Positions 2,247 through 27,814 of a stretch of 63,492 bases of DNA are shown here, piece by piece. The stretch is from an uncultured Clostridia bacterium (lineage in GTDB: Bacteria > Bacillota > Clostridia > Christensenellales > UBA1242), in the NCBI GenBank assembly GCA_937893125.1, contig CALBHW010000025.1:1-63492 (forward strand), read 5' to 3'. The notes below the pieces were generated by a model. The model saw only the letters and a program-made list of their open reading frames with translations. It was not told the DNA's origin and ran no database searches. Numbering within the stretch: position 1 is the stretch's first letter; each line of letters begins with the position of its first letter. The position numbers and the translations under genes were made by a program.

Positions 2247-3143
2247 TTATAACAATTTAGTCATATAATGAATGTAATTTATCACACGAGAATATGTGAG
2301 TTTTGCAAAACTAAAAGTATTTAAAGCGCCCCCATCAAAAGATACAAATGACAAGACATCGCAATTTTCTAGAAAATTTACTGATTTGCAAAAACATTCT
2401 ACAATATCATTTCCTGTCATTAGGGAGTCTGGGATATTATAAACTATCAATTCAATAAAATATTTGTTTAGGTCACTTCCCATTGCCCACTTATTTACAA
2501 GGATTGTCTTTCGAATATTTTTAAAAATTCTAACAAGTTTTTTATAATTTCCATTTGTACGAGCATCTTTTTGTTCCATATTCTCATTATAAGTAAACAA
2601 ATCTATTGGACGAATACATTTTTGCATTGGATCCCAGAAATTTAGCATTGCTTTATCATCCAAATCATTAAATGTCGCCAAACGGATAAGAATTTTAAAG
2701 CCATATTCTTGCAAACACAAGATTTTAATTCCGTCATTATTTAGCAAAATATAAGTTGTCGGATTAAAATGAGTCGCTAAGACATTAGAAAAATCAACTA
2801 TAAACTGGTCTAAAGTACCCGCATTAGACACTTTTTCGCGCTGTTTTTGCGTTTTTGCTTTTGAAAGGTTTTTTAAAAAAGAAGAATTGTTAAAGATTAG
2901 TTGCGAATTGTGCGATGCAATTACGATTTCTAGTTCCCCGTTTTCATCAATAAAAGTCTCGTTTGTATAGTCGCCCATCGGGAAAATTCTCGTTGTTTCA
3001 GGCGTAAAAAGGTCTTTATAGACCGCTTGCTCAACAATTTCGTCCAGCGCAGACGTAACAATAGAAAGTGCAGTCATATAAAATTCCTGCACTCTTGTTT
3101 TATCAACCTTATTTGCAAAATTTTCTATTAAACTTCTTTCCAT
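2247..3143 (-). CDS. Hypothetical protein with a Pol-beta-type nucleotidyltransferase-like pattern (SMODS/CD-NTase-like, degenerate)
   Basis: 298-aa ORF starting 12 nt after the serS stop. FPMGDY-x10-GELEIVI fits hG[GS]-x9-13-[DE]h[DE]h, but with G-D and E-x-E. The C-terminal NYKKLVRIFKNIRK...YFIELIVYNIP resembles the helical half of OAS/CD-NTase-like enzymes. Pattern-level only. Confidence 0.45.
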   Translation of the reverse strand: MERSLIENFANKVDKTRVQEFYMTALSIVTSALDEIVEQAVYKDLFTPETTRIFPMGDYTNETFIDENGELEIVIASHNSQLIFNNSSFLKNLSKAKTQKQREKVSNAGTLDQFIVDFSNVLATHFNPTTYILLNNDGIKILCLQEYGFKILIRLATFNDLDDKAMLNFWDPMQKCIRPIDLFTYNENMEQKDARTNGNYKKLVRIFKNIRKTILVNKWAMGSDLNKYFIELIVYNIPDSLMTGNDIVECFCKSVNFLENCDVLSFVSFDGGALNTFSFAKLTYSRVINYIHYMTKLL

Positions 3144-4539: not shown

Positions 4540-5607
4540 ATGGAAAACACAAATAAAAAAAATGACTATTTTAAAGAACGAAACGCAAAAAATCAAAGGC
4601 AAATTATGCACAATTTGTCGAGTTTGCCATATTTTTGCTATGAGTTTGTCGCGGGAATTGAGAATCGAACAACCCCACTCACCCGCTTAGGCTACACGCA
4701 AGATTTGAAAATCTTTTTTGATTTTTTAACACACGAATGCGCAAATTTTATCGGAATCTCCGCTCACGACCTTACCCTGGACGACTTGGCAAAACTAAGC
4801 GTGAACGACCTAGAACTTTACCTAAATTATTTGTCAAGTTATGATAAAGATGACAAAAACTTACAAAATAGTGCAACAAGCAAGGCAAGAAAATTGTGCG
4901 CAGTTAGAAGTTTATTAAAATATTTTTATAAAAAAGACAAACTTCCACAAAATGTTTCGACAAAAATCGACACGCCAAAAATTAGAGATAAAGAAATAAT
5001 TAGGCTCGAAGTCAACGAAGTTGTTAAACTTCTTAACAACGCCGAAAGCCCAGAAGGTTTTTCAAAAAGGCAAAACTCCTATAATAAACTTACAAAAAAG
5101 CGCGATGTCGCGATTTTAACTCTTCTTCTTGGAACTGGCATCCGTGTAAGCGAATGCGTCGGAATTAACATTGACGACATTGATTTTGACACAAACGGCT
5201 TTAAAATCACTAGAAAAGGTGGCAATCAAGTTATTCTCTACTTTTCAGATGAAGTGGCGGATGCTTTAAAGGATTATTTAGAAGAAAGATTAAACAATGA
5301 AAACGTCGCGCCAAACGAAAATGCCCTATTTTTGTCCCTTCAAAACAAAAGAATCGGCGTGCGCGCAGTTGAGCAACTTGTCAAAAAGTACGCAAGTGGA
5401 AGCGTTCCTTTAAAACATATTACCCCACACAAACTAAGAAGTACATACGGCACAAATTTGTATAGACAAACGGGCGATATTTATATCGTCGCAGATGTCC
5501 TAGGACATAGAGACGTAAATACAACAAAAAAACACTACGCGGCGATAAGTGAAGACGCGCGCAAAAGCGTCGCAAACGTTGTCAAACTTCGCGACAAAAA
5601 TGAATGA
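4540..5607 (+). CDS. Tyrosine site-specific recombinase (XerC/XerD-like)
   Basis: 355 aa with the catalytic pattern GIRVSE ... HKLRST ... LGHRDVNTTKKHY (R, H-x-x-R, H, Y). Confidence 0.85.
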   Translation: MENTNKKNDYFKERNAKNQRQIMHNLSSLPYFCYEFVAGIENRTTPLTRLGYTQDLKIFFDFLTHECANFIGISAHDLTLDDLAKLSVNDLELYLNYLSSYDKDDKNLQNSATSKARKLCAVRSLLKYFYKKDKLPQNVSTKIDTPKIRDKEIIRLEVNEVVKLLNNAESPEGFSKRQNSYNKLTKKRDVAILTLLLGTGIRVSECVGINIDDIDFDTNGFKITRKGGNQVILYFSDEVADALKDYLEERLNNENVAPNENALFLSLQNKRIGVRAVEQLVKKYASGSVPLKHITPHKLRSTYGTNLYRQTGDIYIVADVLGHRDVNTTKKHYAAISEDARKSVANVVKLRDKNE

Positions 5608-5639: not shown

Positions 5640-6260
5640 TTAGTATTTTCTTATAAGCCCAACGACCTTGCCTAAAATGACAACTTCGTTTGATAAAATT
5701 GGTGCGTAATTGTCATTTTCGGGCATAAGCCTAATAATTGAGCCGTCATTAAAATATCTCTTGACAGTCGCACTGCCGTCAATCATTGCAACCACAATTT
5801 CGCCATTGTCAGCAAAACTTTGCCTTCTCACAATAACCTTGTCTTTATCGAAAATGCCCGCCTTAATCATACTATCGCCCTTAATTGTAAGCATAAAGCA
5901 ATCAACACTTGGAAGATTAAAAAGGTCAACGGGCAAATCATAAACTTCGTCATAGTTTGAAAAAGCGAAAATTGGTTGCCCCGCCGACACATCCCCTAAA
6001 AGTGCAACTTTTTTTGTTCGCCCGCTTTCTTGCCTATGCTCAAAGCCAATAAGTTCAATACTTCTATTCTTGCCTTCCCCGCGTCTTATTTGTCCCAAAT
6101 CTTCGAGTTTCTTCAAATAATAACTAATGGTTGATGTCGAATTGACATTAAGTCTCGCCATAAGTTCACGCACAGTTGGTGGATAGCCAAATTGTATGAC
6201 ATTTGTCTTTATACAATCATAAACTTTTTCTAATTTTGTATCAATTTTTTCTCGTGCCAT
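5640..6260 (-). CDS. lexA: LexA repressor
   Basis: 206 aa with an N-terminal wHTH, an Ala-Gly cleavage site (VSAGQP), the GDSM serine and the VKRY lysine. Confidence 0.93.
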   Translation of the reverse strand: MAREKIDTKLEKVYDCIKTNVIQFGYPPTVRELMARLNVNSTSTISYYLKKLEDLGQIRRGEGKNRSIELIGFEHRQESGRTKKVALLGDVSAGQPIFAFSNYDEVYDLPVDLFNLPSVDCFMLTIKGDSMIKAGIFDKDKVIVRRQSFADNGEIVVAMIDGSATVKRYFNDGSIIRLMPENDNYAPILSNEVVILGKVVGLIRKY

Positions 6261-6437: not shown

Positions 6438-6511
6438 AGGGGAATAGTTCAAGGGTAGAGCTATGGTCTCCAAAACCATCGATGAGGGTTCGAATCCTTC
6501 TTCCCCTGCCA
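6438..6511 (+). tRNA. tRNA-Trp (anticodon CCA)
   Basis: Hand-folded cloverleaf: acceptor AGGGGAA/TTCCCCT, anticodon stem ATGGT/ACCAT, loop CTCCAAA, T-arm GAGGG-TTCGAAT-CCTTC, encoded CCA. 74 nt. Confidence 0.9.
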
Positions 6512-6545
6512 AACAAAAACAAAGACCGCAAGGTCTTTTTTTGTT
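6491..6545 (+). repeat. Direct repeat copy 1 (tRNA-Trp T-loop to 3' end, plus terminator)
   Basis: CGAATCCTTCTTCCCCTGCCAAACAAAAACAAAGACCGCAAGGTCTTTTTTTGTT. It recurs at 6701-6754 with one substitution and one 1-nt indel. Confidence 0.9.
6521..6543 (+). terminator. Terminator after tRNA-Trp
   Basis: AAAGACC-gcaa-GGTCTTT followed by a T-run. Confidence 0.7.
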
Positions 6546-6700
6546 AGCAAGGGGTTAGAAGGGCTCGAACGGAGCGTTAAGAAAATATGATTTTTATCAT
6601 ATTTTTAGCGAGTGGCGTGATAGCCTTGTAATAAAATTCTTTACTTTTGCATAATTTAATGACGAGAAAAAACTATTTGTTTTTTATGCTTATGGCGGAG

Positions 6701-6754
6701 CGAATCCTTCTTCCCCTGCCAAGCAAAACAAAGACCGCAAGGTCTTTTTTTGTT
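6701..6754 (+). repeat. Direct repeat copy 2 (orphan tRNA-Trp 3' fragment plus terminator copy; att-like scar)
   Basis: CGAATCCTTCTTCCCCTGCCAAGCAAAACAAAGACCGCAAGGTCTTTTTTTGTT. There is no 5' half of a tRNA upstream of it. Confidence 0.85.
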
Positions 6755-6767
6755 TGCATGAGAAAAA

Positions 6768-6816
6768 GGCGACCGCTTGTGTTGCCAGTCAATTCTGACG
6801 CCAACTCACGACCGCC
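6768..6816 (+). repeat. Left copy of an inverted 46-49-bp repeat (partner at 12327-12372)
   Basis: GGCGACCGC...ACGCCAACTCACGACCGCC. The reverse complement of 12327-12372 reads GGCGACCGC...ACGCCAACTCGCGACCGCC. Matches are 9/9 at one end and 18/19 at the other; the middle has diverged. Confidence 0.7.
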
Positions 6817-6870
6817 TTTTTAGTACAATAAGTTCTATTCACTACTTAATCAATTAAGTTACCTAATTGT

Positions 6871-7047
6871 ACTACCCCCTCGGTCTCTACGAGACCACTC
6901 CCCCTTACGCGTCGAGCCAAGCCCTTAAACTCAGATTGCTTCCGCAATCATTCGAACAGCGGGCTGTCTCTCCTTTTCCCCAAAAATTTCGTAAAGCACA
7001 CGCTTTACTGCTATTTTCGGGGACCCCACTTCCGACAAAGGGGTAGT
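6871..7047 (-). repeat. GC-rich structured repeat element, copy A (candidate ncRNA or MITE-like element)
   Basis: 177 nt, alignable with 8339-8516. Identical blocks include ACTCCCCCTTACGCGTCGAGCCA and CTCTCCTTTTCCCCAAAAATTTCGTAAAGC. Several hairpins carry compensatory changes. An A.C mismatch on the plus strand (6982/7018) becomes G.U on the minus strand. Confidence 0.65.
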
Positions 7048-7084
7048 GAAATCGGCTTACCTAGAATAAGCATAAATTGTAAAC

Positions 7085-8272
7085 TCACTTTGCTAAATCT
7101 TTTGGGAGACGCTGGAAGGCGCGCTGGGCGGATTCGAGTTTTGATTTCTCTTGTGTGTAATATTCCGCTATGGCGGTTGGGTCGTCGCCACGTTTAAAGC
7201 GCTCTTGACATTCCCTATTAACTTCAAGTAGTCGGCGGTTATTTCTTAGGAGCATTTCCTTTCTCAAACAATACTTTTGCACACTATTTGGTGCCGTGCC
7301 GTCCGCCCAAAGAAGTTTGATGTATTCTAGCCTATCGTCTGGGTCGGCTTGTGCCAAAATTTTGTATTTTGAACGCTTATCCATATAAAGTCCCACATTG
7401 TTTTTTACGCAAATTGGGTCGGTTATTTTGCGCTTTTCTTCAATGCAATCAAGTTGCAATTTCCTAATTTGAAGTTCCCTTGCAACATCATAAAAAATGG
7501 TTAGTCCAAGTAAAATCATCGGCACAAGAAGTCCAAGCGCCACCGCTGGTGACGAAACCGTCTCCGACAAACTAGCGATTGAATTTGCGAACCCCGAATC
7601 CGTATGAATGCCTAAAACAACATTTTCAGACACCATATAAGCGTCGTCTTGAAGATTGGACGACCCATAAGTTTTAAACCACCTTACCCCGTCGTCGTCT
7701 TGATACACATCGCGCACTTTATGGAATACAAGCATAGAATTTGCATTCGACGCTTGCTTAATTTCACTATTCTTAAACCCCAAAAAAGTCGAAATAGAGC
7801 GGTCATAAGAAGTTGCGCCTATGTCGTCGTCTTTTACGCGCACGCAACTATTAACATCAAACTTGGTATAACTCCCACCCCAAACATAAAAGGCAATTTT
7901 GTCGCCCCGTTTAATGGTCTTTGTGTTAACACTTCGAATAACAACACTGTCACCAACATTAAAACCGTCATTTGACATACTCGCTGATACAAGCGTAAAT
8001 TTGGAATATCCCATAAAAGACGCTGGCACATTTTGCACGCGACTGTTTAGCACCATTACACCTAAAAGTAGCGTAAGCGCAACCAAAATCCCGCTCAATG
8101 CACACACAACAACTTGTGCAACCTTACCCGCAACACTCTTTGGCTCTTTCAAAAAGTTTTCATTAACTTTTCTCTTCTTCTCATACTTTTTGAGCAAATC
8201 ACTCGCCTTGCGCTCCATTGCCTTTTGAACGGATTTGTCTTCAACTATGTTTACATTTACCATGTCGGACAT
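7085..8272 (-). CDS. SipW-like (archaeal/ER-type, S26B) signal peptidase I with long cytoplasmic N- and C-terminal extensions
   Basis: VSASMSN...GDSVVI...IKRGDKIAFY...VFHKV...WFKTYGSSNLQDD parallels B. subtilis SipW (SGSMEP...GDVITF...THRIV...KTKGDNN..D). A second TM (AVALGLLVPMILLGLTIFY) sits where SipW has one. The AAGGAG RBS favours the ATG at 8272 over the ORF-track start at 8278. Confidence 0.65.
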   Translation of the reverse strand: MSDMVNVNIVEDKSVQKAMERKASDLLKKYEKKRKVNENFLKEPKSVAGKVAQVVVCALSGILVALTLLLGVMVLNSRVQNVPASFMGYSKFTLVSASMSNDGFNVGDSVVIRSVNTKTIKRGDKIAFYVWGGSYTKFDVNSCVRVKDDDIGATSYDRSISTFLGFKNSEIKQASNANSMLVFHKVRDVYQDDDGVRWFKTYGSSNLQDDAYMVSENVVLGIHTDSGFANSIASLSETVSSPAVALGLLVPMILLGLTIFYDVARELQIRKLQLDCIEEKRKITDPICVKNNVGLYMDKRSKYKILAQADPDDRLEYIKLLWADGTAPNSVQKYCLRKEMLLRNNRRLLEVNRECQERFKRGDDPTAIAEYYTQEKSKLESAQRAFQRLPKDLAK

Positions 8273-8338
8273 AATCATACTCCTTTTAATAAGATTGGTT
8301 TGCTTATTTGATTATAGTCAAATAGTGATAATTGTTGG

Positions 8339-8516
8339 GCTACCCTCTCCCCCCTTCGGGGTACTCCCCCTTACGCGTCGAGCCACGCCCGCTTGTTCGG
8401 GTTGCTATCGCAACCACTCAACTTATGGGCGGGCTCTCCTTTTCCCCAAAAATTTCGTAAAGCGTATGCTTTACTGCTATTTTTGGGGACCCCTTTCTTG
8501 GTGCCAAGGGGGTAGT
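8339..8516 (-). repeat. GC-rich structured repeat element, copy B
   Basis: 178 nt with the same architecture as copy A. It lies 8 nt after the stop of the 222-aa gene and about 60 nt before the signal peptidase start. Confidence 0.65.
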
Positions 8517-8523
8517 AAATTTA

Positions 8524-9192
8524 TTACTCCACAACTGTCGCACCGCCGATGGTGTCGGAGTTGGCAAGTGACCAGTTAAGGCTCGCGTCACCTAAACTTT
8601 CGTAAACTGCCCCAGTGTACAATTTGTCAATTTCTACAAGAATATAAAAATATGCACTATTCCCAGCATATACAAGTTGCGATAGCGTAGACTCTGTCGT
8701 CGACCCTTGCGTTTTAATCGTGCTTGCTCCGTCAATCATTGTCGCAAACGACAACTCAGTCCCCGACGCATAATACCATACATTTACATTTGACTTGTTC
8801 GACGCGTCAGCAACCGTAACAAGCAAATCGTGTCCCCCGCTTGGATTATTATTAGTAAATTTGTATGTAAACAAAGCATAAGAATTACTTTTACTTAGCG
8901 CGACCGATTGTGGCGTTTGCAAAGTCGCAGTCGTACTCGATTGCTCCAATCCAAATTTTACACTCGTTGTCTTGCCGTCCGCGCCAACTAAATTTGTCTT
9001 TTCTATATTTGCTTCCGTTTGATATACGGCACTCGCTGTCGCATTAACATGTACCGCGTTGTACCTAATAACTAAGTTGCTCGACACACCTTGCGTCGAC
9101 GCAGATAAAACTATCACAACTGTCATCACTGACACCGCGACTACACATACTAGCGTAAATATTGATAATACAATTTTTCTTGTTGATGACAT
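8524..9192 (-). CDS. Small secreted or membrane-anchored protein of unknown function (leader related to that of the DGR target)
   Basis: 222 aa with an N-terminal hydrophobic segment followed by SASTQG...VIRYNA. The target protein has WGATQM...EITYSA at the same place. The remainder is Ser/Thr/Asn-rich and looks beta-rich. Confidence 0.7.
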   Translation of the reverse strand: MSSTRKIVLSIFTLVCVVAVSVMTVVIVLSASTQGVSSNLVIRYNAVHVNATASAVYQTEANIEKTNLVGADGKTTSVKFGLEQSSTTATLQTPQSVALSKSNSYALFTYKFTNNNPSGGHDLLVTVADASNKSNVNVWYYASGTELSFATMIDGASTIKTQGSTTESTLSQLVYAGNSAYFYILVEIDKLYTGAVYESLGDASLNWSLANSDTIGGATVVE

Positions 9193-9458
9193 AATTTACA
9201 TCCTTTTGTGTGGAATTTTTTTTATTTCAACTTTCTATCTTATTCTTACTCCCCCTTGTAAGGGGGAGTAAAAACTGAAATTAGTTTCTACTAGGGTTCC
9301 CTTCACCGTTTTTTGTATATCCCTTTATTTTTAAAAATTTTCGACCCCCTTAGGGGGGGTATATTTTTAAAGTGGTCGTCACTTATGTTTAAGTGGGGCT
9401 TGGGATTTTTTCGTTTATTGCAGGCGTGGTAGCCTGCACGAAAAAAAGCCTTCGCCCC

Positions 9459-9480
9459 CTGGGGGATCTTAATCCCCCAG
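9459..9480 (-). other. GC hairpin immediately 3' of the VR (DGR retrohoming-type hairpin/cruciform)
   Basis: The minus strand reads CTGGGGGAT-TAAG-ATCCCCCAG: a 9-bp stem and 4-nt loop, about 10 nt past the end of TR/VR homology and 5 nt past the stop codon. Confidence 0.65.
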
Positions 9481-9484
9481 CCCC

Positions 9485-11863
9485 CTAGCTAGAGATAAGG
9501 GAAGGACGAAAGCCGATACCAACAAGCGTATGCGCTAGAGCATTGTCAACACATATACAGAACAGCCCAGCATCGTAACCGCTATTAACAGTACCACCGC
9601 GCAGGACACCATAAATGTAATCGGTTGACGTATTAACCCAATAGTAATCGCATCGTCCAGTTGTAGCGCTTCCGTCAGAACCAGCACTTGTAGGCACGCC
9701 TACAAGTTGCTCCAAAGCGCCTTCAGAGACGATGTTAGAAGTCCCGTTGTAACGAGACTTATATCCCCCTTCCGTTGGAAGGGTGTAAGACAATTCGACA
9801 TAATTTCTATCTTTTAAATCCGCTTTTTTGTTTGCATATTCGCCCGAATAGGAGTTAAAAAGCCAATTTGAGCCGTTAAAATCGTCAAAATTGACGAACA
9901 TATGCATACTTGTTCCGCCATTTGAGACGACGGCTTGACCAAACGACCATTCCCACACATTGCCCCAAGGGTTGCAAATTCCTAGGCAAAACACGCTTGA
10001 ATATCTATCCGTCCCCACAAAGCCGTCAGAAAGAACGCGTCTAGTGACGCTTGAGCCACTGGAAGCGATATTTTTGACCATAAATTGTGAAGAATAGAGT
10101 CCCGTTGGGTCGGAGCCGTTGCTGAGAGAGTTTGTGTTCGTGTAATTATAGGAAAAGCCGTAAGACAAGGTAGAATTTGAATAAGTTGTGACTGTTCCGC
10201 CTGGTTTTTCGGATTCATAATATCTTGCGTAATCTGTTCTATCGGCGTATTGGCTATTTGCGTCATAGTTCCAAGTACAGCCATAGCCGACCATTTCTTG
10301 AGAGTTATTGTTTGCATATTTTACAAGGTACAAAAGGTCGTAAGCGTACATTTTCCAATTTTCGCCTTGGACGCCCTTAACCTTTTTATATGACGACGCA
10401 AGGCTACTAGAATTCCACCTATTAGTCAAAGTTGTCATATAAGATTGCATAGTTTGTTGGTTAGTTGAGTTGCCTTTTACGCCCGCGGTGTCGGAATATC
10501 CCGACCAATTGTTAAGCGCGTAATTTATGCTACCACTTGTCAAAGGTCCCGCTTCGAAAGTTGCGATATAAGAGCGTGGGACATCTGATGTAGTTTTGTC
10601 TGGGTTAAAGAGGGTTGCTTCAAAAGTTGCAAGGTAAAACTCGTCAATTTTTACGCTACCCGTGAAGAATTTGTCTGACAAACTTTGCCATTGTCTATCC
10701 CCGACCACCCAACGGCGAAGGTACATAGTAGGATAATATGTGTAGCAGTCGACAGCGGAAAAGGTCGTTTGTGCAGTCAATTTTCTACCGCTTGCGAGTG
10801 TTCTTCCCGCTGGCAAGGTTACGCTTCTTCCAAACCATTCAAAAGGATATGTCGGGTCGGACAACTTCCCTATTATTTCGCCCGTTGCTAAGTCGACATT
10901 AACAATGTCAATGTCTTTATAGACGACCGCGTCAAGGTAGTCGTCTTGTCCATAAGTGATATTTGGGTTGCCCAAACTATTTTTATTTTGCAAGAAGCCC
11001 GCGATGTTGCTTAGACTTGTTTCGTTAACCTTTGTTGCAGTTGCGTTTAGGGTTGCGTTGTAACCATATTTTGTCCAACTAGGGTCAGTTTGGTCAATGT
11101 CTTGATAAATACTTAAAATGTCGTTTGAAGTGTATTGAATATCTGCCATAAAGGAGACTGAGACGACGAAAGAAGTCGACTCTACTTGCCAAACGGACGA
11201 ATCATATGTTGAGTTTAATTTAATTGAGACTTTTATAACATAAGTGTCGTTTTGGTCGATGCTTGAATTGCTTTGGAAAGCAGTCAAGGTGCTATTTGAC
11301 ACATAGCCTTTAACTGCTGAGACATAGGAAGTTGCGCTGTAATTTGGTTTCATAGCAAGCAAGTCGCTCATACCTTCTGTGTAGTTATAATAATATTGGT
11401 CGGTTATGAAGTCTAGATACGATACATTTGGCGAGATTGTAACATTAGGCAAAATATATCTATCTCCGATATTTTTGATGAAGACCATAAGTTCAATTGA
11501 TTTACTTGTATCTTCGAGCGGGAAAGTCCCCAAATCGCAAGTAATGCCCGAGAGTTCGTTCTCTTTCCCCGACACGGTGTAGACATTGTCATTTGACGAC
11601 CCGCTCCCACCCGTCATTGTCATCCACGAAGCGTTACCCGCAGTCGAGCCAGAATTAAGGGAGTATGTTCCCCAAATTTTGGCACCGATTTCGGTCGCAG
11701 AATATGTAATTTCGCCTTGCATTCTAAGATACATTTGGGTTGCGCCCCAAATCTCAGCGGTTGCAATAAAACCGATGACAAATGCTAATATAAAAAATAA
11801 TACTGATTTTGCTCTTCTCACCCTTGTTTCCACAGACTTTTTCCCTAACCTTTTAAAGTACAA
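9485..11863 (-). CDS. DGR variable (target) protein: N-terminal leader/TM plus C-terminal FGE-sulfatase/C-type-lectin-fold domain carrying the VR
   Basis: 792 aa with a TTG start (GTG alternatives 27-39 nt downstream). The GNVWEW motif and the terminal ...GGTVNSGYDAGLFCICVDNALAHTLVGIGFRPSLISS match the CLec-fold VR pattern. The last 120 nt are the VR. Confidence 0.9.
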   Translation of the reverse strand: MYFKRLGKKSVETRVRRAKSVLFFILAFVIGFIATAEIWGATQMYLRMQGEITYSATEIGAKIWGTYSLNSGSTAGNASWMTMTGGSGSSNDNVYTVSGKENELSGITCDLGTFPLEDTSKSIELMVFIKNIGDRYILPNVTISPNVSYLDFITDQYYYNYTEGMSDLLAMKPNYSATSYVSAVKGYVSNSTLTAFQSNSSIDQNDTYVIKVSIKLNSTYDSSVWQVESTSFVVSVSFMADIQYTSNDILSIYQDIDQTDPSWTKYGYNATLNATATKVNETSLSNIAGFLQNKNSLGNPNITYGQDDYLDAVVYKDIDIVNVDLATGEIIGKLSDPTYPFEWFGRSVTLPAGRTLASGRKLTAQTTFSAVDCYTYYPTMYLRRWVVGDRQWQSLSDKFFTGSVKIDEFYLATFEATLFNPDKTTSDVPRSYIATFEAGPLTSGSINYALNNWSGYSDTAGVKGNSTNQQTMQSYMTTLTNRWNSSSLASSYKKVKGVQGENWKMYAYDLLYLVKYANNNSQEMVGYGCTWNYDANSQYADRTDYARYYESEKPGGTVTTYSNSTLSYGFSYNYTNTNSLSNGSDPTGLYSSQFMVKNIASSGSSVTRRVLSDGFVGTDRYSSVFCLGICNPWGNVWEWSFGQAVVSNGGTSMHMFVNFDDFNGSNWLFNSYSGEYANKKADLKDRNYVELSYTLPTEGGYKSRYNGTSNIVSEGALEQLVGVPTSAGSDGSATTGRCDYYWVNTSTDYIYGVLRGGTVNSGYDAGLFCICVDNALAHTLVGIGFRPSLISS
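9491..9610 (-). repeat. DGR variable repeat (VR)
   Basis: Aligns without gaps to 13588-13707. There are 23 mismatches, all at positions where TR has A on the coding (minus) strand: 20 in the core and 3 at the 3' edge. Confidence 0.92.
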
Positions 11864-12026
11864 TTATACTTACTACACTATATTTTACCTATTTGTCACC
11901 CCCGTGTCAATAAATTATATCCCAAATATACATAATACCCATTGTCAATTTAATCAAGTGAAATTGAGTAGGGGTAATGATTGGGGCTTGGTTGTATATA
12001 AATATCAAGTAATACTATCGGTTGGA

Positions 12027-12070
12027 CTACCCTATCCCCCCTTCGGGGTACTTCCCCTTACAAGGGGAAG
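12027..12070 (-). repeat. Truncated copy C of the structured repeat element
   Basis: ACTACCCTATCCCCCCTTCGGGGTACTTCCCCTTAC matches the first ~35 nt of copy B (33/35). It then joins directly to AAGGGGAAGCAAATTTATTA, which is related to the 3' end and flank of B, so the ~130-nt core is missing. Confidence 0.7.
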
Positions 12071-12326
12071 CAAATTTATTATATTGTTTAAGGCTCCCTT
12101 ATAAGGGGCAATAATCATACAACAAGTTACTTTCTTACTTCCCCTTACAAGGGGAAGCCTACTCCAATTGGCTTCTTACCCACTCTCCATTGTAAGGGGA
12201 AGCCTACTTAAACTTTTTTTTATTTACCCCCCTTATGACAAAGGGGGGTGGCGCGGTTAGCGTCGGAGGGATAGTAAAACTAAAGAACATTACTAATTGG
12301 GTGGTGAAATGAGATGGTTGAACTGG

Positions 12327-12372
12327 GGCGGTCGCGAGTTGGCGTTCGAAGAACAGTCTACTCGCGGTCGCC
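12327..12372 (-). repeat. Right copy of the inverted 46-49-bp repeat; itself a 12-bp hairpin
   Basis: GGCGGTCGCGAG-N22-CTCGCGGTCGCC, 11 nt after the RT stop codon. See 6768-6816. Confidence 0.7.
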
Positions 12373-12383
12373 TACAAGATACT

Positions 12384-13490
12384 CTATTCGACTTGCTGAA
12401 GAGCAATGCGCAAGGCTTCTTTCTCCGCTTTATTACGCAATTTATCGTGACGACTTATCGTAAAACGGCACTGCCCTACATTCACATATGGTTGCAAGTA
12501 TTTTAGATAAAATCTATTTCCGCTTGTTACTTTAATTCGCGCACTATAACTCATTATTGCGCTTGAATCGCGCGCGGTGAGATAATCCTTCTTATAAATC
12601 TTTCTAATGCGTCTAACGGCGCGCAAAAAGGTTTTTGACCGCATAGTAATATAGTTGCGATAAAATTTATATCCCAAAAAGTCGAGCGGGCGTCCACTTC
12701 CCTTTTTATCCGCGATTTTAAACACTTGCCAATTAGGTTTAATTGTCAAATGCTCATTATTTAGATATTTCTCAATTTCTTTTTGCCACTTACCTAATTT
12801 TCTCTTATTTGGTGAAAAGAAAACCATATCGTCCATATATCTAATATAGTGCGGAATTTTAAGTTGTTCTTTGACATAATGGTCGAAGTCTTGCAAGTAA
12901 AAATTGGCAAACCACTGACTAGTGTAGTTGCCGATTGGGACGCCCGACGGGACGGAACGGACGATAATTTTTATTAAATTTAATGTTTTTTGGTCTTTTA
13001 TAATGGTTTCAAACTTTTTAAGTAGCAAATCTTGGTCAATGCTTGGATAAAATTTGCGAACATCGCATATAAGGCAATATTTTGTGTTTCGCGGGTCGTT
13101 TTTTAACCATTTTTGAACCGTTTTAATACCATATGACGCGCCCCGATTGTCGACAGACGCGCAACAATAGTCATACATCCCGCGCATTAAAATAGGCTTA
13201 ATAACGAGCATTAGCGCCCATTGGACAATTTGGTCGGGGTAAAATTTGGGAATAAAAATTTCACGGATTTTGCCCGTGCATTTATCGTTTATAATTTTTG
13301 AAGAATATTTCATCGGCTTATACTTTTCGCGGAACAAAAGGTCGTGTAAAAGGGCGAGTTTTTGCTCTATATCACCCATAAAACGCTTTACATTCACTCT
13401 TTTACGCTTTCCCTTTGACGCGCAACGCGACGCCACTCTAAGGGTCGATAAGTCGATAATTTCATCATATAAATCTTTTACTCTTTTCAT
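12384..13490 (-). CDS. DGR reverse transcriptase
   Basis: 368 aa. Motif 4 PIGNYTSQWFANFYL (the [ILV]GxxxSQ of DGR RTs, in place of the QGxxxSP of group II/retron RTs). Motif 5 YIRYMDDMVFF. No maturase/endonuclease domains. AAGGGA RBS. The TR lies 98 nt upstream. Confidence 0.93.
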   Translation of the reverse strand: MKRVKDLYDEIIDLSTLRVASRCASKGKRKRVNVKRFMGDIEQKLALLHDLLFREKYKPMKYSSKIINDKCTGKIREIFIPKFYPDQIVQWALMLVIKPILMRGMYDYCCASVDNRGASYGIKTVQKWLKNDPRNTKYCLICDVRKFYPSIDQDLLLKKFETIIKDQKTLNLIKIIVRSVPSGVPIGNYTSQWFANFYLQDFDHYVKEQLKIPHYIRYMDDMVFFSPNKRKLGKWQKEIEKYLNNEHLTIKPNWQVFKIADKKGSGRPLDFLGYKFYRNYITMRSKTFLRAVRRIRKIYKKDYLTARDSSAIMSYSARIKVTSGNRFYLKYLQPYVNVGQCRFTISRHDKLRNKAEKEALRIALQQVE

Positions 13491-13587
13491 TGTGTCCCTT
13501 ATAATGTCTATCGGCGTTTCGGTCTCCTACTAAGCCAATTCTCTTGCGACAAATTTTTAGCGTATGCTACGGATAAAAGGTTGCTAA

Positions 13588-13707
13588 ATTTATAAGGGAA
13601 GGACGAAAGCCGATATTAACATTTGTATTCGTTAGATTATTGTTAACATTTATATAGAACAGCCCAGCATTGTTATTGTTATTTACATTACCACCGCGCA
13701 GGACACC
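13588..13707 (-). repeat. DGR template repeat (TR)
   Basis: The coding-sense translation GVLRGGNVNNNNNAGLFYINVNNNLTNTNVNIGFRPSLI is AAY-codon rich. It is not part of any ORF. It is the only other copy of the VR sequence that I could find by eye. Confidence 0.92.
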
Positions 13708-13853
13708 CCACATAAAACGAAGAAAATGGCTCGGAGAGCAACCAAATACCCATTTATATTATACCCCACACTTCCCTTTGTCCCCTAATAAATTTCTTGT
13801 CTACTTTTGTCTATTTTCGTCGAAGATTGACAAATTAAAAGGAAAAATAAAAA

Positions 13854-13902
13854 GGGCGGTCATATGCAAGCGTCCGAATGGACAGTTTGCGTATGGTCGC
13901 CC
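13854..13902 (-). terminator. Rho-independent terminator of rny
   Basis: Long hairpin GGGCGACCATACGCAA...TTGCATATGACCGCCC on the minus strand followed by a U-run, 19 nt after the rny stop. Confidence 0.75.
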
Positions 13903-13920
13903 GTAAAAATATTTGTTAAA

Positions 13921-15474
13921 TTATTTTGCTACATCAGTTGCGCGAGTTTCTCTAATGACATTAACTTTAATTTGACCAGGATATTGAAGTTCATTTTCAA
14001 TTTTTCTTGCAATATCTTTTGCAAGGAAAACGATGCTTTTATCGTCAACTTCTTCAGGCTTAACCATAATTCTGATTTCTCTACCCGCTTGAATAGCATA
14101 AGATTTTTCAACGCCCTTAAAACTATTTGCGATATTTTCAAGATTTTCAAGTCTCTTAATGTATGCGTCAAGGAGTTCTCTTCTAGCACCAGGTCTACTA
14201 CTTGAAATTGCGTCCGCCGTTTGAACGATAATTGCTTCAAGCGACCTAAACTCGACATCGCCGTGGTGCGCTTCAATACAGTGGATGACTTCTGGCGATT
14301 CCTTGTACTTTTTCGCCAAATCAACACCAATTGAAACGTGAGTACCTTCTTGTTCATGGTCAAGAGCCTTACCTATATCGTGCAAAAGCCCCGCGCGTTT
14401 TGCTACACGCACATTTGCGCCAAGTTCGCTAGCGAGAAGCCCCGCCAAATGGCACACTTCAAGGCTGTGTTTAAGCACATTTTGCCCATAACTTGTCCTA
14501 AATTTAAGTCTACCTAGAATCTTAACAAGTTCAGGGTGCATATTCATAATTCCCGACTCATAAACAGCGTTTTCACCCGCTTCTTTAATAACCGCATCGA
14601 CATCTCGTTGCGCTTTTTCGACAATTTCTTCAATGCGTGCTGGATGAATACGCCCATCCATAATAAGTTTTTCAAGCGCTACACGCGCGATTTCCCTTCT
14701 ATATGGGTCAAATCCCGACAAAACAACCGCTTCTGGCGTGTCGTCAATTATAAGGTCAACGCCCGTCGCATTTTCAATTGCACGAATATTTCGGCCTTCT
14801 CGACCAATAATTCTTCCCTTTAATTCGTCATTTGGGAGCGGAACAACAGTCACTGTAATTTCGCTTGTAATATTTGTTGCGCATTTTTGGACAGCCAAAG
14901 TCACAATCTCACGCGCTTTTTTCTCCGCCGTGTCAACTGCTTCTTCTTCCATTTGCCTTATCGTCTGCGCGCAGTCCATTTTTGCTTCGTCTACATAACG
15001 GTCGATAAGTTGTTTTTTTGCTTCCTCTTTTGTTATTCCAGACACTTTTTCAAGCGCTTGGGTTATTTTTTCGCTTTCTTTGTCTACTTCCTTTTTTGCT
15101 TCTTCAAGTTCCGTTTCTCTTTGCTTTAAATTATCAATCATAACGTCCAAGGATTCCGCTTTTTTATCCAAGGTTTCTTCCTTGCGTTGCAAAGATTCTT
15201 CTTTCATTGTAAGCCTGTTTTCTGATTTCGAAATCTCGTTGTAACGCTCGGCTATCTCTGCGTCACATTTTTCTTTGAGCGAATGGATTTCTTCTTTCGC
15301 TTCCAAAATTGCTTCTTTTTTTGCTGTTTTAGCCTCAGCATAGGCATTTTCTAAGATTTTAGTCGCATTGTTTCTTGATTGTGATGCTTTTTTTGATATT
15401 AAAAAATATGTTGCGCCTGTTCCAGCTCCAATACTTAAAACACAAGCGACTAAAAACCAAACTATTGGTATCAT
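13921..15474 (-). CDS. rny: Ribonuclease Y
   Basis: 517 aa with an N-terminal TM, a coiled coil, a KH domain ([13 protein letters not shown]) and an HD domain (LLHDIGKA). Confidence 0.93.
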
Positions 15475-15768
15475 TTAGTCACTGTTCCTTTTATAAAAAA
15501 TTTATCAAAAATTCAATAACGAAATATCAAATGATTTGACTGATTATAGTTTAGCAATATCTAAAAATTATGTCAAACAAATTTATTATAGCAAAAAAAG
15601 CGAATTGCTAAAATACAAATTAACAACTCGCTTTAAATTTATTTTTTTCTATAAAAAATTATCAATTTTTGTAAATTTTTGTTCAAAAATGGTAAAAAAC
15701 ACTTTAATTTGGCTCAAAAAACCTTTTTTACCCCAAATAAGATTTTTAAAAGGGCTTATATTCCTAAA

Positions 15769-25264: not shown

Positions 25265-27814
25265 ATGAAAAAAATTTTAGCAATCTTTTCTTTTGTTTTA
25301 GTTTTTATACTAGTCACTACGGGATGTTCTAACGACAATAGTGCTCAAGTTAGAATGTCAAGTCAAAAATTATCAAGTGGACTTGACCAAATTATTAGTT
25401 TAACTAACAAACTAGACAACATAGATACAAATAAAATGGATTTAAATTCAATTTTGTCCAATGAAGGCTCGATTGTAAGTTCAACCACGCAAACATCCGC
25501 CTTCAATTTTGACCAAAGCACTCCAAAAAATGCACTGGATGAGCGCCCATTCCTTTTTGCACCACTTTATGATGAAAATAGTCAAGACAGAACACCAATA
25601 GATTTTTCATATATGCAAAAATTTAATGAATGTGCTAATATTGCACCAAATTCACCTTCAATGCAATTCAATGTACCTTCTCCACAAAAATTTAGACAAC
25701 AATGTATAAATTTTAACGCAAAACGTGCCATGAAAATGAATAATGACATAAAGCCATGCTCAGTGTCGACATATAGTCAAAATGAATATTCTTCACTTGC
25801 GACCTTGTCTAATGATTGTAAAAATTTAAATCAAGAATTTGTAACTGCAAAAGCAAATGTTTTGAAAAGTTGTAGCGAGGCGAAAGCAAATTTAAAAAAA
25901 TTAAAAGAAAGTAAAAAAAGCATTCCAGAAAATGACCTTCGCACGCTCACAAGTTACTATGAAGTCGTAAAGGATTGTATTAACAATGTGAAATCATGCA
26001 AAAGTTGTTCAAGCAACCTTAAAAATATAAATCGCAAAAAGAACAATCTTTCAACCAACTCTGGCACTATCAATTCCGAATTGCTACAAGTATATAATAA
26101 ACTTGACGCAAATTGTTGCACACTAAACAACACAATATATTGTGTAAATGAAATCAATTGTTTCGCTAAAAAGTTAAACGGAGAAAAATGCTCAACAAAC
26201 ATGTCTGTTAACCCTTACATTAGAAACAATAGGTATCTTTCAAGTCTAAATAGTGCAAAAAATAAAGAATTTTATAATTCACAGTCAAAAAATCAAACAA
26301 ATCAACCTTACAATAATCAATTAAAAGCAACAGATCAAAACAAATCAAATATAACAAATTCACCGATAAATAATCAAACAAACACACAAAATCAATCTCA
26401 AAATGATATAAAAAGGTCACTAGAACCTAATTTTGATACAAAATCAGTTACAAATAACATAACGCCTACCAATAATTACACAAAAAGCAATGAAACTACA
26501 AAATACAAAGAACAAAATGGACAAAATTATGTAAATTCTCCAAAAAATAATACTATTTACAATCAAACAGACACTTTAAATCGACCTAATACAAATAATA
26601 ACAGCGCAAAAAACGAATTGATCTTTACTCAAAAAGACTACTCTAATAATGTAACAACAAATAAATTACAAAAAAATGATGAAAACGAGAAAAAAGTGAC
26701 TGAAAATAAGCAAAATGAGTTAGCTACTAACTCAGACAGAAATAATTTCATTAAAAATGCCCAAAAAACAGATGTTAATGAGCAAAATAAAGCCATTTTT
26801 AATACAAATCGATATAAAAATGACGAAAAAACAACAAAAAATGACAATATTTCATCAAAAAGCACTGGTAGTTATAACAATATAACTAATAATATTCAAA
26901 AACAAAAAAATGAAAAAATAGCCAATAATTTTTACTATTCTTCAAATAACAATTCTTTAAACAATGCAAATTCGAATACAAATCCATACACAAAGGATAT
27001 AAAGGATAAAGACAAGTATTTATCCAACCTAAGAAACTACAACTCCAATAATGAAAATGAAAAAACAAATTATAAAAGAAATAACAACACTAATGCTTAC
27101 GACTCTACCCTACACAATCAAACAAACGACCTAAGTAGAAATCAAAAAATCAACTCAACCAATTTCAATAATAATGTCGCAAAAGGCTCGACATTTAATC
27201 AATCTAGCAGTAAATATGTAGAAACAAATAAAAATCAAAATACGACAAATAATTCTTCAAATTTAAACCAAATTTCAAGCACAACTTTCAACACAACTTA
27301 CACTCCTAACATGACTCCTACCCCTACTTACAATAATGGAGTTAACAACAATTCAAATTATGGTTATACAACTTACCCTAATTTGGATCGAACACATCCC
27401 GTCGAAATAGAACGACAAAACGAAGATAAATATGCAACAAATCAAGACGACACAAACAATGATCCAAATACACTAGAAAAGAACAAGGACTATACATCAA
27501 AAATAGAGCCAAACAAAACACAACAAAATGATGTAAAACCAAGTTCATTAAGCCAGTATTCAAACGACAATAAAGCCTTCACTTATTATAAAAACAACAG
27601 TGAGAACAATATTAACAATAATCATTATCAAACGCCACAATATCAATATGAAAACGCTAAAAATGATAATGTAACAAGACAAAATCAAAATAATTCAGGC
27701 ACGCAGTATCACAATGCCCGAAATTTTGCAAGGAATTATGACCCAACAAAAAATTACAGGTCAAGTACAAATCTTTTAGTCAAGCCACAATCTGTCCGTG
27801 CTAATGTCTCATAA
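25265..27814 (+). CDS. Lipoprotein with a Cys-rich N-terminal region and a very long Asn/Thr/Gln/Lys-rich low-complexity region
   Basis: 849 aa. Signal peptide plus lipobox (LVTTG|C). GGGAG RBS. Composition is seen directly in the translation. Confidence 0.7.
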   Translation: MKKILAIFSFVLVFILVTTGCSNDNSAQVRMSSQKLSSGLDQIISLTNKLDNIDTNKMDLNSILSNEGSIVSSTTQTSAFNFDQSTPKNALDERPFLFAPLYDENSQDRTPIDFSYMQKFNECANIAPNSPSMQFNVPSPQKFRQQCINFNAKRAMKMNNDIKPCSVSTYSQNEYSSLATLSNDCKNLNQEFVTAKANVLKSCSEAKANLKKLKESKKSIPENDLRTLTSYYEVVKDCINNVKSCKSCSSNLKNINRKKNNLSTNSGTINSELLQVYNKLDANCCTLNNTIYCVNEINCFAKKLNGEKCSTNMSVNPYIRNNRYLSSLNSAKNKEFYNSQSKNQTNQPYNNQLKATDQNKSNITNSPINNQTNTQNQSQNDIKRSLEPNFDTKSVTNNITPTNNYTKSNETTKYKEQNGQNYVNSPKNNTIYNQTDTLNRPNTNNNSAKNELIFTQKDYSNNVTTNKLQKNDENEKKVTENKQNELATNSDRNNFIKNAQKTDVNEQNKAIFNTNRYKNDEKTTKNDNISSKSTGSYNNITNNIQKQKNEKIANNFYYSSNNNSLNNANSNTNPYTKDIKDKDKYLSNLRNYNSNNENEKTNYKRNNNTNAYDSTLHNQTNDLSRNQKINSTNFNNNVAKGSTFNQSSSKYVETNKNQNTTNNSSNLNQISSTTFNTTYTPNMTPTPTYNNGVNNNSNYGYTTYPNLDRTHPVEIERQNEDKYATNQDDTNNDPNTLEKNKDYTSKIEPNKTQQNDVKPSSLSQYSNDNKAFTYYKNNSENNINNNHYQTPQYQYENAKNDNVTRQNQNNSGTQYHNARNFARNYDPTKNYRSSTNLLVKPQSVRANVS

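Follow-up and report, generated by a model that had tools for sequence, protein, structure and literature searches.

Does the stretch between positions 9,459 and 13,707 of contig CALBHW010000025.1, from an uncultured Clostridia bacterium of gut or rumen (assembly GCA_937893125.1), encode a machinery for the targeted hypermutation of one of the cell's own proteins? A first-pass annotation, made without database searches, had described this stretch as a complete diversity-generating retroelement (DGR). To our knowledge, no prokaryotic system other than the DGRs deliberately hypermutates the binding site of a protein; their catalogued number runs to tens of thousands, most in gut microbes, and one more is in itself no surprise. 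We have re-examined the locus within the whole 63,492-nt stretch of DNA (referred to here as the window), together with comparison loci and assemblies fetched for the purpose (L-numbers; L001-L006 are public assemblies that carry members of the target-protein cluster). The outcome leaves us with little doubt that the locus is a chromosomal DGR of the Avd-less type, in which a template repeat (TR) is followed directly by the gene for a reverse TRANSCRIPTASE (RT), and that it diversifies the C-terminal tip of a membrane-anchored protein.

The core of the evidence is a pair of repeats. Read on the minus strand, positions 13707-13588 (TR) and 9610-9491 (the variable repeat, VR) align without gaps over 120 nt with 23 mismatches, every one of which has an adenine in TR (12 A>G, 6 A>C and 5 A>T), and no non-adenine position differs in the window, just as the first-pass annotation had stated. 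The three mismatches at the 3' edge (TR AAA versus VR CTC, 9494-9492), which that annotation had counted together with the others, do not qualify as products of mutagenesis: CTC is invariant in all five VR alleles described below, while true TR-adenine positions vary, and the edge mismatches are thus the start of an unrelated flank. The secure repeat is therefore limited to 116 nt on the minus strand, 13592-13707 for TR and 9495-9610 for VR. This core contains 36 of the 39 adenines present in the 120 nt of TR, and all 20 of its mismatches fall on them (chance probability ∼7e-11, given 36/116 A). VR is the final 116 nt of coding region ahead of Ser-Ser-stop, its end being separated by 7 nt from the stop codon of a 792-amino-acid (aa) open reading frame (ORF), the target gene. 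In the reading frame of VR the TR adenines are distributed over codon positions 1, 2 and 3 as 18/14/4, and 13 codons of TR are of the AAY type. Re-translation of both repeats agreed with the earlier translations and with the 13 changed codons, 13 amino-acid positions being different. A degenerate pattern with N at each TR adenine matches just the TR and VR sites in the window and gave no match in 100 shuffles; scans of Joint Genome Institute (JGI) metagenome contigs and of IMG/VR with the TR/VR pattern for more copies likewise returned 0 matches. A 24-nt block at the 3' end is the same in TR and VR. Its invariance would fit a block resembling the initiation of mutagenic homing (IMH) element; being identical in the two repeats, it cannot, however, act alone as an IMH/IMH* discriminator.

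The description of TR as non-coding holds insofar as no minus-strand ORF of at least 50 aa crosses it, but a 48-codon ATG-initiated ORF (13713-13568, minus strand) does run in frame through TR and ends within the first stem of the RT-18 RNA described below. No Shine-Dalgarno sequence or other ribosome-binding site is obvious ahead of it, and this ORF is probably a relic of TR having arisen from VR.

The RT gene (12384..13490, minus strand) encodes a protein of 368 aa in which both expected motifs, IGNYTSQ ([ILV]GxxxSQ) and YMDD, can be read. RVT_1 was the sole Pfam family matched. The best match in the PDB, by a wide margin, was 8ub7_A (E 2e-26, 96 bits), which by a tblastn comparison with phage genomes is the RT of Bordetella phage BPP-1 (100% identity of the matched sequence to brt; a literature search on the PDB code 8UB7 found nothing), and the IGNYTSQ motif aligns onto IGSLTSQ of the BPP-1 enzyme (bRT). 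Solved group II intron RT (E 3e-12), retron-type RTs (2e-11) and Drt RTs (no better than 3e-12) follow at a distance. Among phage protein families, phrog_1423 (reverse transcriptase) matched at E 7e-106, and of the annotated phage RTs the one of Lactobacillus phage LBR48 comes closest (44.6% identity). A pair of adenine-biased TR and VR is located directly upstream of RT in 13 of the 17 closest IMG/VR relatives (all ≤47% identical) and is present also in the cellular relatives L007 and L014; in phage relatives such as L041, L042, L046 and others, the order is VR-TR-RT with no space for avd. Judged by these sequence comparisons, the enzyme belongs to the DGR type rather than to the group II intron, retron or Abi RTs.

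These data bear directly on a less specific explanation, by which the two repeats would have arisen through ordinary duplication or gene conversion next to an unrelated RT (retron, group II intron, Abi or DRT), with the adenine bias owed to base composition or chance. The genome is indeed AT-rich, and the top NCBIfam matches of the RT are group II intron RT, Drt3a and retron. The latter are all far under their cut-offs (e.g. 97 versus 300 bits), however, with bRT being the best solved relative, and the changes run from TR adenine to any base in VR and not towards AT. Moreover, the mismatches fall on positions 1 and 2 of AAY codons, and the bias, already strong in the window alone, is found again in four further alleles. 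We consider this explanation effectively refuted.

Support for recent activity of the element comes from related strains. The 90%-identity cluster of the target protein has seven members, and DNA from six assemblies (L001-L006) provided five VR alleles, each of which was compared with its own TR (the L004 VR with the L005 TR as a proxy). Substitutions at TR adenines account for 20/20 in the window and L001, 14/14 in L002, 18/20 in L003, 18/18 in L004 (proxy TR) and 15/16 in L005 and L006, which in addition share a 2-nt deletion. Taken together, the five alleles have 88 substitutions, 85 of them at TR adenines; of the 36 adenines, 33 have been changed in one allele or more. Far from being monomorphic, VR is the strongest divergence hotspot of the shared block: each of the three pairwise comparisons has its most divergent bin there, 10- to 17-fold above background. 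The window and L002 have 0 differences in 4,938 nt outside VR (2253 nt of the target gene without VR, 520 nt of the spacer between RT and target, 302 nt of the next spacer, 669 nt of the following gene, p222, and 1194 nt of a gene for a 397-aa protein), while differing at 21 of 116 positions within it. The last homing must therefore be more recent than any point mutation in the surrounding ∼4.9 kb. In the same vein, TR and the spacer that follows it are 100% identical in the window, L002 and L003, and the corresponding VRs differ at 20 to 28 of 116 positions. A further line of evidence is provided by the TR of the L005 lineage, which differs from that of the window at positions 35, 36, 78, 93 and 105; these changes are present in VR, 5/5 of them in L004 and 4/5 in L005/L006. 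Changes that mark a TR lineage are thus mirrored in VRs located 4 kb away, which shows a flow of information from TR to VR, as homing predicts. None of the outcomes named as refuting by the first-pass annotation (non-adenine mismatches in the window, an RT nearest to group II intron, retron or Abi enzymes, a monomorphic VR) was observed. Contigs with RT variant P0010 stop in the hairpin-rich intergenic region and supplied no extra VR alleles.

The spacer between TR and RT (13591-13491, ∼100 nt) holds a further characteristic component, the RT-18 RNA (Rfam RF03021; 13496..13569, minus strand), which scores 49.2 bits against a gathering score of 41.3 and ends 6 nt upstream of the RT start. RT-18 was found in the TR-to-RT spacer of the window and of 10 other loci (L002, L005, L007, L013, L040-L044, L046), and an alignment of the window with 9 of these loci revealed compensatory changes in 10 of 12 predicted pairs. 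Two other motifs of the same series, RT-4 (L047-L049) and RT-17 (L052), sit exactly between an adenine-biased TR and the RT gene of viral contigs, and several orphan Rfam "RT" motifs can therefore be assigned as DGR spacer RNAs. In the paper that defined RT-1 to RT-19, RT-10 was mapped to the interval from TR to brt in BPP-1, and it was surmised that further RT motifs might belong to other DGRs (PMC5737381), a speculation that RT-18 at the present locus bears out. By its position RT-18 corresponds to the "Sp" region of BPP-1, and by analogy it may take part in the priming of cDNA synthesis.

Two promoter-like sites and a hairpin complete the cassette. A perfect -10-like hexamer, TATAAT, is located ∼50 nt upstream of TR (13758..13763, minus strand) and, on direct reading, is a candidate promoter of the TR-spacer-RT transcript; the call is tentative, as a simple promoter scan gave no full -35/-10 pair there. 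The best promoter-like site within 6800-14000 is TTGACA-17-TAAAAT (11882..11910, minus strand; 11/12 consensus positions), directly upstream of the target gene, at the end of a 520-nt region between RT and target (11864..12383, minus strand) dense in GC-rich palindromic hairpins. Just past the target gene, 14 nt 3' of VR, is the GC hairpin CTGGGGGAT-TAAG-ATCCCCCAG (9459..9480, minus strand; 9-bp stem, 4-nt loop). Equivalent hairpins with altered, compensatory stem sequences follow the VRs of L007, L014 and L012. This hairpin is a candidate target-recognition hairpin or cruciform.

The target gene (9485..11863, minus strand) has its longest ORF at 792 aa, and its real start is likely GTG 11833 (782 aa) because of the promoter-like site and of the 782-aa calls in three Logan-derived cluster members. 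Its product combines an N-terminal membrane helix with a beta-rich middle part and a variable-protein fold at the C-terminus. Two AlphaFold2 models were obtained (pLDDT, the predicted local distance difference test, 87.8 and 84.6); in the former, based on a 50-sequence alignment, a helix (residues 8-43) is followed by a disordered linker, beta-sandwich domains and a C-terminal domain. Sequence and profile searches against PDB sequences and NCBIfam gave no meaningful match for the target, and none of 50 members of its family matched Pfam at E up to 0.01; with the PDB, fold comparison was the one approach that worked. The only meaningful PDB fold matches (Foldseek) were the Thermus aquaticus variable protein TaqVP (5vf4), with a probability of 1.0 for the full-length and 0.9 for the C-terminal model, followed by Mtd of BPP-1. 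Against BFVD, a collection of predicted viral structures, the C-terminal model produced 31 matches at E ≤1e-3, mostly crAss-like and other phage tail-fibre proteins, plus TvpA-like and sulfatase-modifying-factor-like proteins. A phage tail protein family, phrog_5302, covers residues 366-790 (E 8e-16). The first-pass annotation had placed VR in a C-terminus with a C-type-lectin or formylglycine-generating-enzyme (FGE) fold and a GNVWEW motif. The motif is there (NPWGNVWEW), and the fold is supported at the level of modelled structure, but not by any curated sequence family. A membrane-anchored protein with an N-terminal helix also fits the commonest class of cellular DGR targets (PMC8144416).

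If the BPP-1 paradigm is followed, the components would act together as follows. A transcript with TR and the structured RT-18 spacer would be copied into cDNA by the adjacent 368-aa RT, with random nucleotides going in opposite template adenines, and the cDNA would replace VR in the 3'-terminal part of the target gene, 4.1 kb further downstream. The site of replacement is probably marked by the 3' block common to both repeats, together with the GC hairpin that follows it. The outcome would be hypervariation of up to 18 codons (13 of them AAY), a theoretical repertoire of ∼2.5e18 peptides, with the varied codons placed on a C-terminal, lectin-like and presumably ligand-binding face of the membrane-anchored protein. 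The mode of cDNA integration is likewise suggested by analogy with BPP-1.

The analogy is close in several respects. As in the prototype BPP-1 DGR (mtd-avd-TR-brt), mismatches are adenine-specific, VR is at the 3' end of a gene for a target with a C-type-lectin-like fold, the RT carries [ILV]GxxxSQ and YMDD, a structured RNA is located between TR and the RT gene (RT-10 there, RT-18 here), and VR is closely followed on its 3' side by a GC hairpin whose loop has 4 nt. On the other hand, the present element is chromosomal rather than phage-borne and lacks Avd; its genes are arranged as TR-RT-target, the target following RT at a distance of 0.5 kb and having a promoter-like site to itself; and where BPP-1 varies a tail-fibre tip, the target here has ∼790 aa and carries a membrane anchor at its N-terminus. 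TaqVP, TvpA of Treponema denticola and the variable proteins of phage tail fibres share the predicted C-terminal fold (0.9 to 1.0 for 5vf4), but their sequence identity to the target is 10 to 20%, their global template-modelling (TM) scores are 0.3 to 0.5, and they have no counterpart of its N-terminal 430 residues.

Several observations weigh against the proposed interpretation. No candidate ORF for Avd, an HRDC, MSL or CH1 protein or another accessory gene was found between rny and the target, nor was any Avd-like ORF present further on as far as tRNA-Trp, and four small intergenic ORFs had no meaningful match in Pfam or NCBIfam, so that no Avd is to be recognized among them; the mechanism of BPP-1 therefore cannot be carried over unchanged. 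In contrast to BPP-1, the repeat itself shows no IMH/IMH* difference, and the determinant of direction would have to lie in the flank and the hairpin. Compared with solved variable proteins, the target model has low global TM-scores (0.33 for TaqVP), and its C-terminal 179 aa matched no Pfam family, FGE-sulfatase (PF03781) included, at E up to 10. Three of the 88 substitutions lie elsewhere than at adenines (L003: T>C and G>A; L005: T>G). Finally, the VR allele of the window recurs in L001, and that of L005 is identical in two different ENA samples (L005 and L006). Turnover is thus episodic rather than continuous, and the activity of the DGR, evolutionarily very recent as it is, need not be current in the sampled cell.

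With respect to Avd, its presence does not define the DGR family, and its absence is a known architecture. According to Wu et al. 2018, the Avd-less "Architecture A1" with a TR-RT core makes up 75 of 372 curated DGRs, 26% of DGRs are without avd and 29% have an accessory-free Architecture A; the same authors noted an Avd-less RT lineage ("Lineage 3") and suggested an Avd-independent variant of homing (PMC5758913), which the present element may also use. The present locus shares with Architecture A1 a TR followed by RT with no accessory gene and differs from it in that the target is downstream and not upstream of RT. The element can be called complete, as it had been, strictly in the sense of this known architecture. 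It displays the defining DGR features that could be tested and is a clean case of a well-known kind of system.

The recurrence of alleles leads to the question whether we are dealing with a genuine DGR that is now dormant or decaying in the present strain, the differences between VRs being a record of past activity. Frameshifts in relatives would fit such a state. Both L002 and L003 have A6 in place of A5 in the RT gene (at window ∼13020, CTTAAAAAG -> CTTAAAAAAG), a change seen in at least two independent assemblies that splits RT into ORFs of 160 and 226 aa (L002 8373-9480; L003 8341-9448), and the 160-aa fragment is on record from three contigs. In L005 (5803-5916) and L006 (4858-4971) a 2-nt deletion in VR (corresponding to window 9558-9557) cuts the target to 771 aa, with RT intact. 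In the window, on the other hand, RT, TR, RT-18, the hairpin and the target ORF are all intact, and the above-mentioned lack of substitutions around a VR differing at 21 positions from that of L002, as well as the full conservation of TR and spacer in the window, L002 and L003, speak against long inactivity. L002 and L003, both with a frameshifted RT, still have 20 of 116 VR differences between them. In view of this balance we give dormancy only a small chance. The frameshifts are either decay or off states. The truncating VR of L005/L006 might be an "off" allele, liable to be overwritten when homing next takes place, and, as a side hypothesis, the frameshifts in the A-run of RT and those in VR would together represent off states resettable by renewed homing. 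The claim that this cell can hypervariate a surface protein is accordingly backed by recent adenine-restricted turnover of VR between strains and tempered by the same allele in L001.

The gene that the DGR diversifies is the first of an operon. Downstream of it, p222 (8524..9192, minus strand) encodes a 222-aa membrane-anchored protein with an N-terminal module homologous to the N-terminus of the target: BLASTP of p222 against the target found nothing, but profile-profile comparison of the N-terminal 115 residues of the p222 family with the target N-terminus gave an hhalign probability of 92% (E 5.5e-7). Searches of p222 in Pfam and NCBIfam had no meaningful match. The next gene (7085..8278, minus strand) encodes a 397-aa candidate signal peptidase of the SipW/SEC11-like (S26B) type with a C-terminal extension. 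Its NCBIfam matches are under cut-off (the archaeal-type signal peptidase model TIGR02228, E 3e-10, 40 bits versus 51.85; SipW, E 8e-10, 38.5 versus 190), and its profile, compared with the PDB, ranks SEC11A and SEC11C first at weak significance (E 0.24; phmmer against the PDB found nothing). Ser100 (in an SxSM box, with M101), His186 and Asp212 are invariant in 32 homologues, and all 156 of 156 database homologues are unannotated. The succession of a full-length target homologue, a p222-like gene and a homologue of the 397-aa protein recurs in 6 loci (L007, L008, L009, L010, L016 and L038), and none of the shorter target paralogues (those without the N-terminal 240 residues) has this arrangement. 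Since several loci with the operon have no RT in range, the DGR looks like an add-on to an older operon. The 397-aa protein may be a dedicated signal peptidase that processes the target and p222.

Some repeated sequences are peculiar to this region. GC-rich palindromic repeats (e.g. CTTCCCCTTGTAAGGGGAAG, CCCCCCTTCGGGG) are confined to the intergenic regions of the DGR and the target operon (6897-7027, 8318-8493, 9247-9269, 9344-9360 and 12005-12270), and 22 of the 39 G5/C5 runs of the 63-kb window are concentrated in the 2-kb bins that begin at 8001 and 12001. Two further elements recur: one of 131 nt, which includes a terminator-like hairpin, is found after p222 and again after the peptidase gene, and one of 57 nt is found ahead of the target and again ahead of the peptidase gene. 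A number of public contigs are interrupted in this repeat-rich part.

Relatives of the target (a family of ∼100 homologues) occur in metagenome-assembled genomes (MAGs) of uncultured Clostridia, Christensenella-like bacteria and Oscillospiraceae from goat colon, buffalo rumen and human gut. A Hadza gut MAG, CAKVOE01 (L017, L018, L021, L034; see also L019), contains at least 8 paralogues of a shorter (∼660 aa) target. The C-terminal 120 nt of several of them are mutually alignable and differ mainly at AAT/AAC-type positions, which suggests that one TR may serve many targets in trans. No RT was found within 8 kb of any of these paralogues.

The wider setting of the locus is relevant to another possibility, namely that the DGR lies in a prophage (or in what is left of a phage) and that the protein it varies is a tail fibre or receptor-binding protein of the phage rather than a surface protein of the bacterium. 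The resemblance of the C-terminal half of the target to phage tail families and to predicted tail-fibre structures, the frequency of this RT family in phages, and a nearby tyrosine recombinase gene and tRNA-Trp with a duplicated 3' end would agree with it. Nevertheless, the window is a chromosome fragment of a spore-forming Firmicute (with SpoVA, YunB, ComEC, PBP, AspRS, PheST, ThiI, IscS, LexA and SerS), and neither the block that contains the DGR nor its flanks have a capsid, terminase or portal gene or any further tail gene; the block is surrounded by genes of housekeeping function (rny, thiI, iscS, pheST, lexA, serS), with rny (RNase Y) ending at 13921 (minus strand) upstream of TR. The target has an N-terminal membrane helix, its operon with p222 and the signal-peptidase-like gene is conserved in several Clostridia MAGs (in some of them without RT nearby), and even the closest viral RTs stay at or below 47% identity, with the TR/VR pattern absent from IMG/VR. 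That the present DGR is part of a phage and diversifies a phage protein thus appears very unlikely.

The comparison with L002 shows that the locus is part of a mosaic chromosome. Over 6491-15646, from rny to tRNA-Trp, the two sequences are 98.5% identical (95.4% in rny, which is inside this block), and from 12383 to 7085 they are 100% identical apart from VR and one intergenic base. In the flanks identity falls to 84 to 85.5% (pheST, iscS, thiI) and to 90.8% (lexA, the recombinase gene, serS). The block of ∼9 kb, so much more conserved than its flanks, has evidently been exchanged recently between diverged lineages, by recombination or horizontal exchange. In L011 (4450-10460), from a related species whose RNase Y is 85% identical, a shorter target homologue occupies the interval from rny to lexA, and no RT, TR, p222 or peptidase gene was detected in it; the content of the locus therefore varies between relatives.

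At the other end of the block, the tRNA-Trp gene (6438-6511, plus strand) is associated with a direct duplication (6482-6549 and 6692-6758) of its 3' end (2 mismatches in 23 nt) and terminator, of which L002 has one copy, and the tyrosine recombinase gene (4540-5607) and lexA (5640-6260) adjoin it. The duplication looks like an integration or excision scar. As an att site bounding the block it was rejected, the copies being 209 nt apart with no third copy.

Some further ORFs of the window are worth recording. For a 298-aa ORF next to serS (2247-3143, minus strand), a precomputed record lists a CD-NTase C-terminal domain (PF26305), and a Pfam scan at E up to 1e-5 gave no match; it might be a defence gene of the CBASS (cyclic-oligonucleotide-based anti-phage signalling system) type. 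Two plus-strand ORFs are without Pfam match: one of 849 aa (25265-27814), in a region of AT skew +0.32, and one of 532 aa (49530-51128) with three 42-nt tandem repeats at 49938-50063.

What, then, might the diversified protein be part of? We put forward, with reserve and as a proposal that is more probably wrong than right in its entirety, that the DGR diversifies the adhesive tip of an undescribed Clostridia surface assembly, in which the target and p222 would be cut by the SipW/SEC11-like peptidase, and that the ∼9-kb block, from rny to tRNA-Trp, passes by recombination between species that are ∼85% identical elsewhere and would thereby spread a hypervariable adhesin system in finished form. 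A relationship of the target and p222 to TasA/camelysin or to the SipW-signal model TIGR04088 was considered and found unsupported (no NCBIfam match at E up to 10, no Pfam Peptidase_M73); since neither the TasA nor the SipW-signal model matches, an assembly into fibres or pilus-like structures is a conjecture. A functional analogy, and nothing beyond that, may be drawn with the DGRs of Bacteroides Type V pilus adhesins (bioRxiv 10.1101/2024.11.15.621889), which are gut chromosomal DGRs with a target encoded together with surface-assembly genes. They differ in phylum and machinery from the present locus with its SipW/SEC11-like peptidase and small paralogous subunit.

Overall, the window and L002 together are nearly equivalent to a before-and-after experiment, done by nature, on mutagenic homing in uncultured gut Clostridia. 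RT-18, RT-4 and RT-17, orphan motifs in Rfam, find their place in the spacer between TR and RT of genuine DGRs. With TR, a 100-nt structured spacer and the 368-aa RT contained in ∼1.3 kb and no Avd, the element is a candidate for the study of Avd-independent homing and for a minimal diversification cassette. The value of the locus lies in its clear natural evidence, its compactness, the RT-18 assignment and an unexplored target operon, in which a Pfam-less protein family tied to a dedicated signal-peptidase-like gene hints at a new surface-display pathway.

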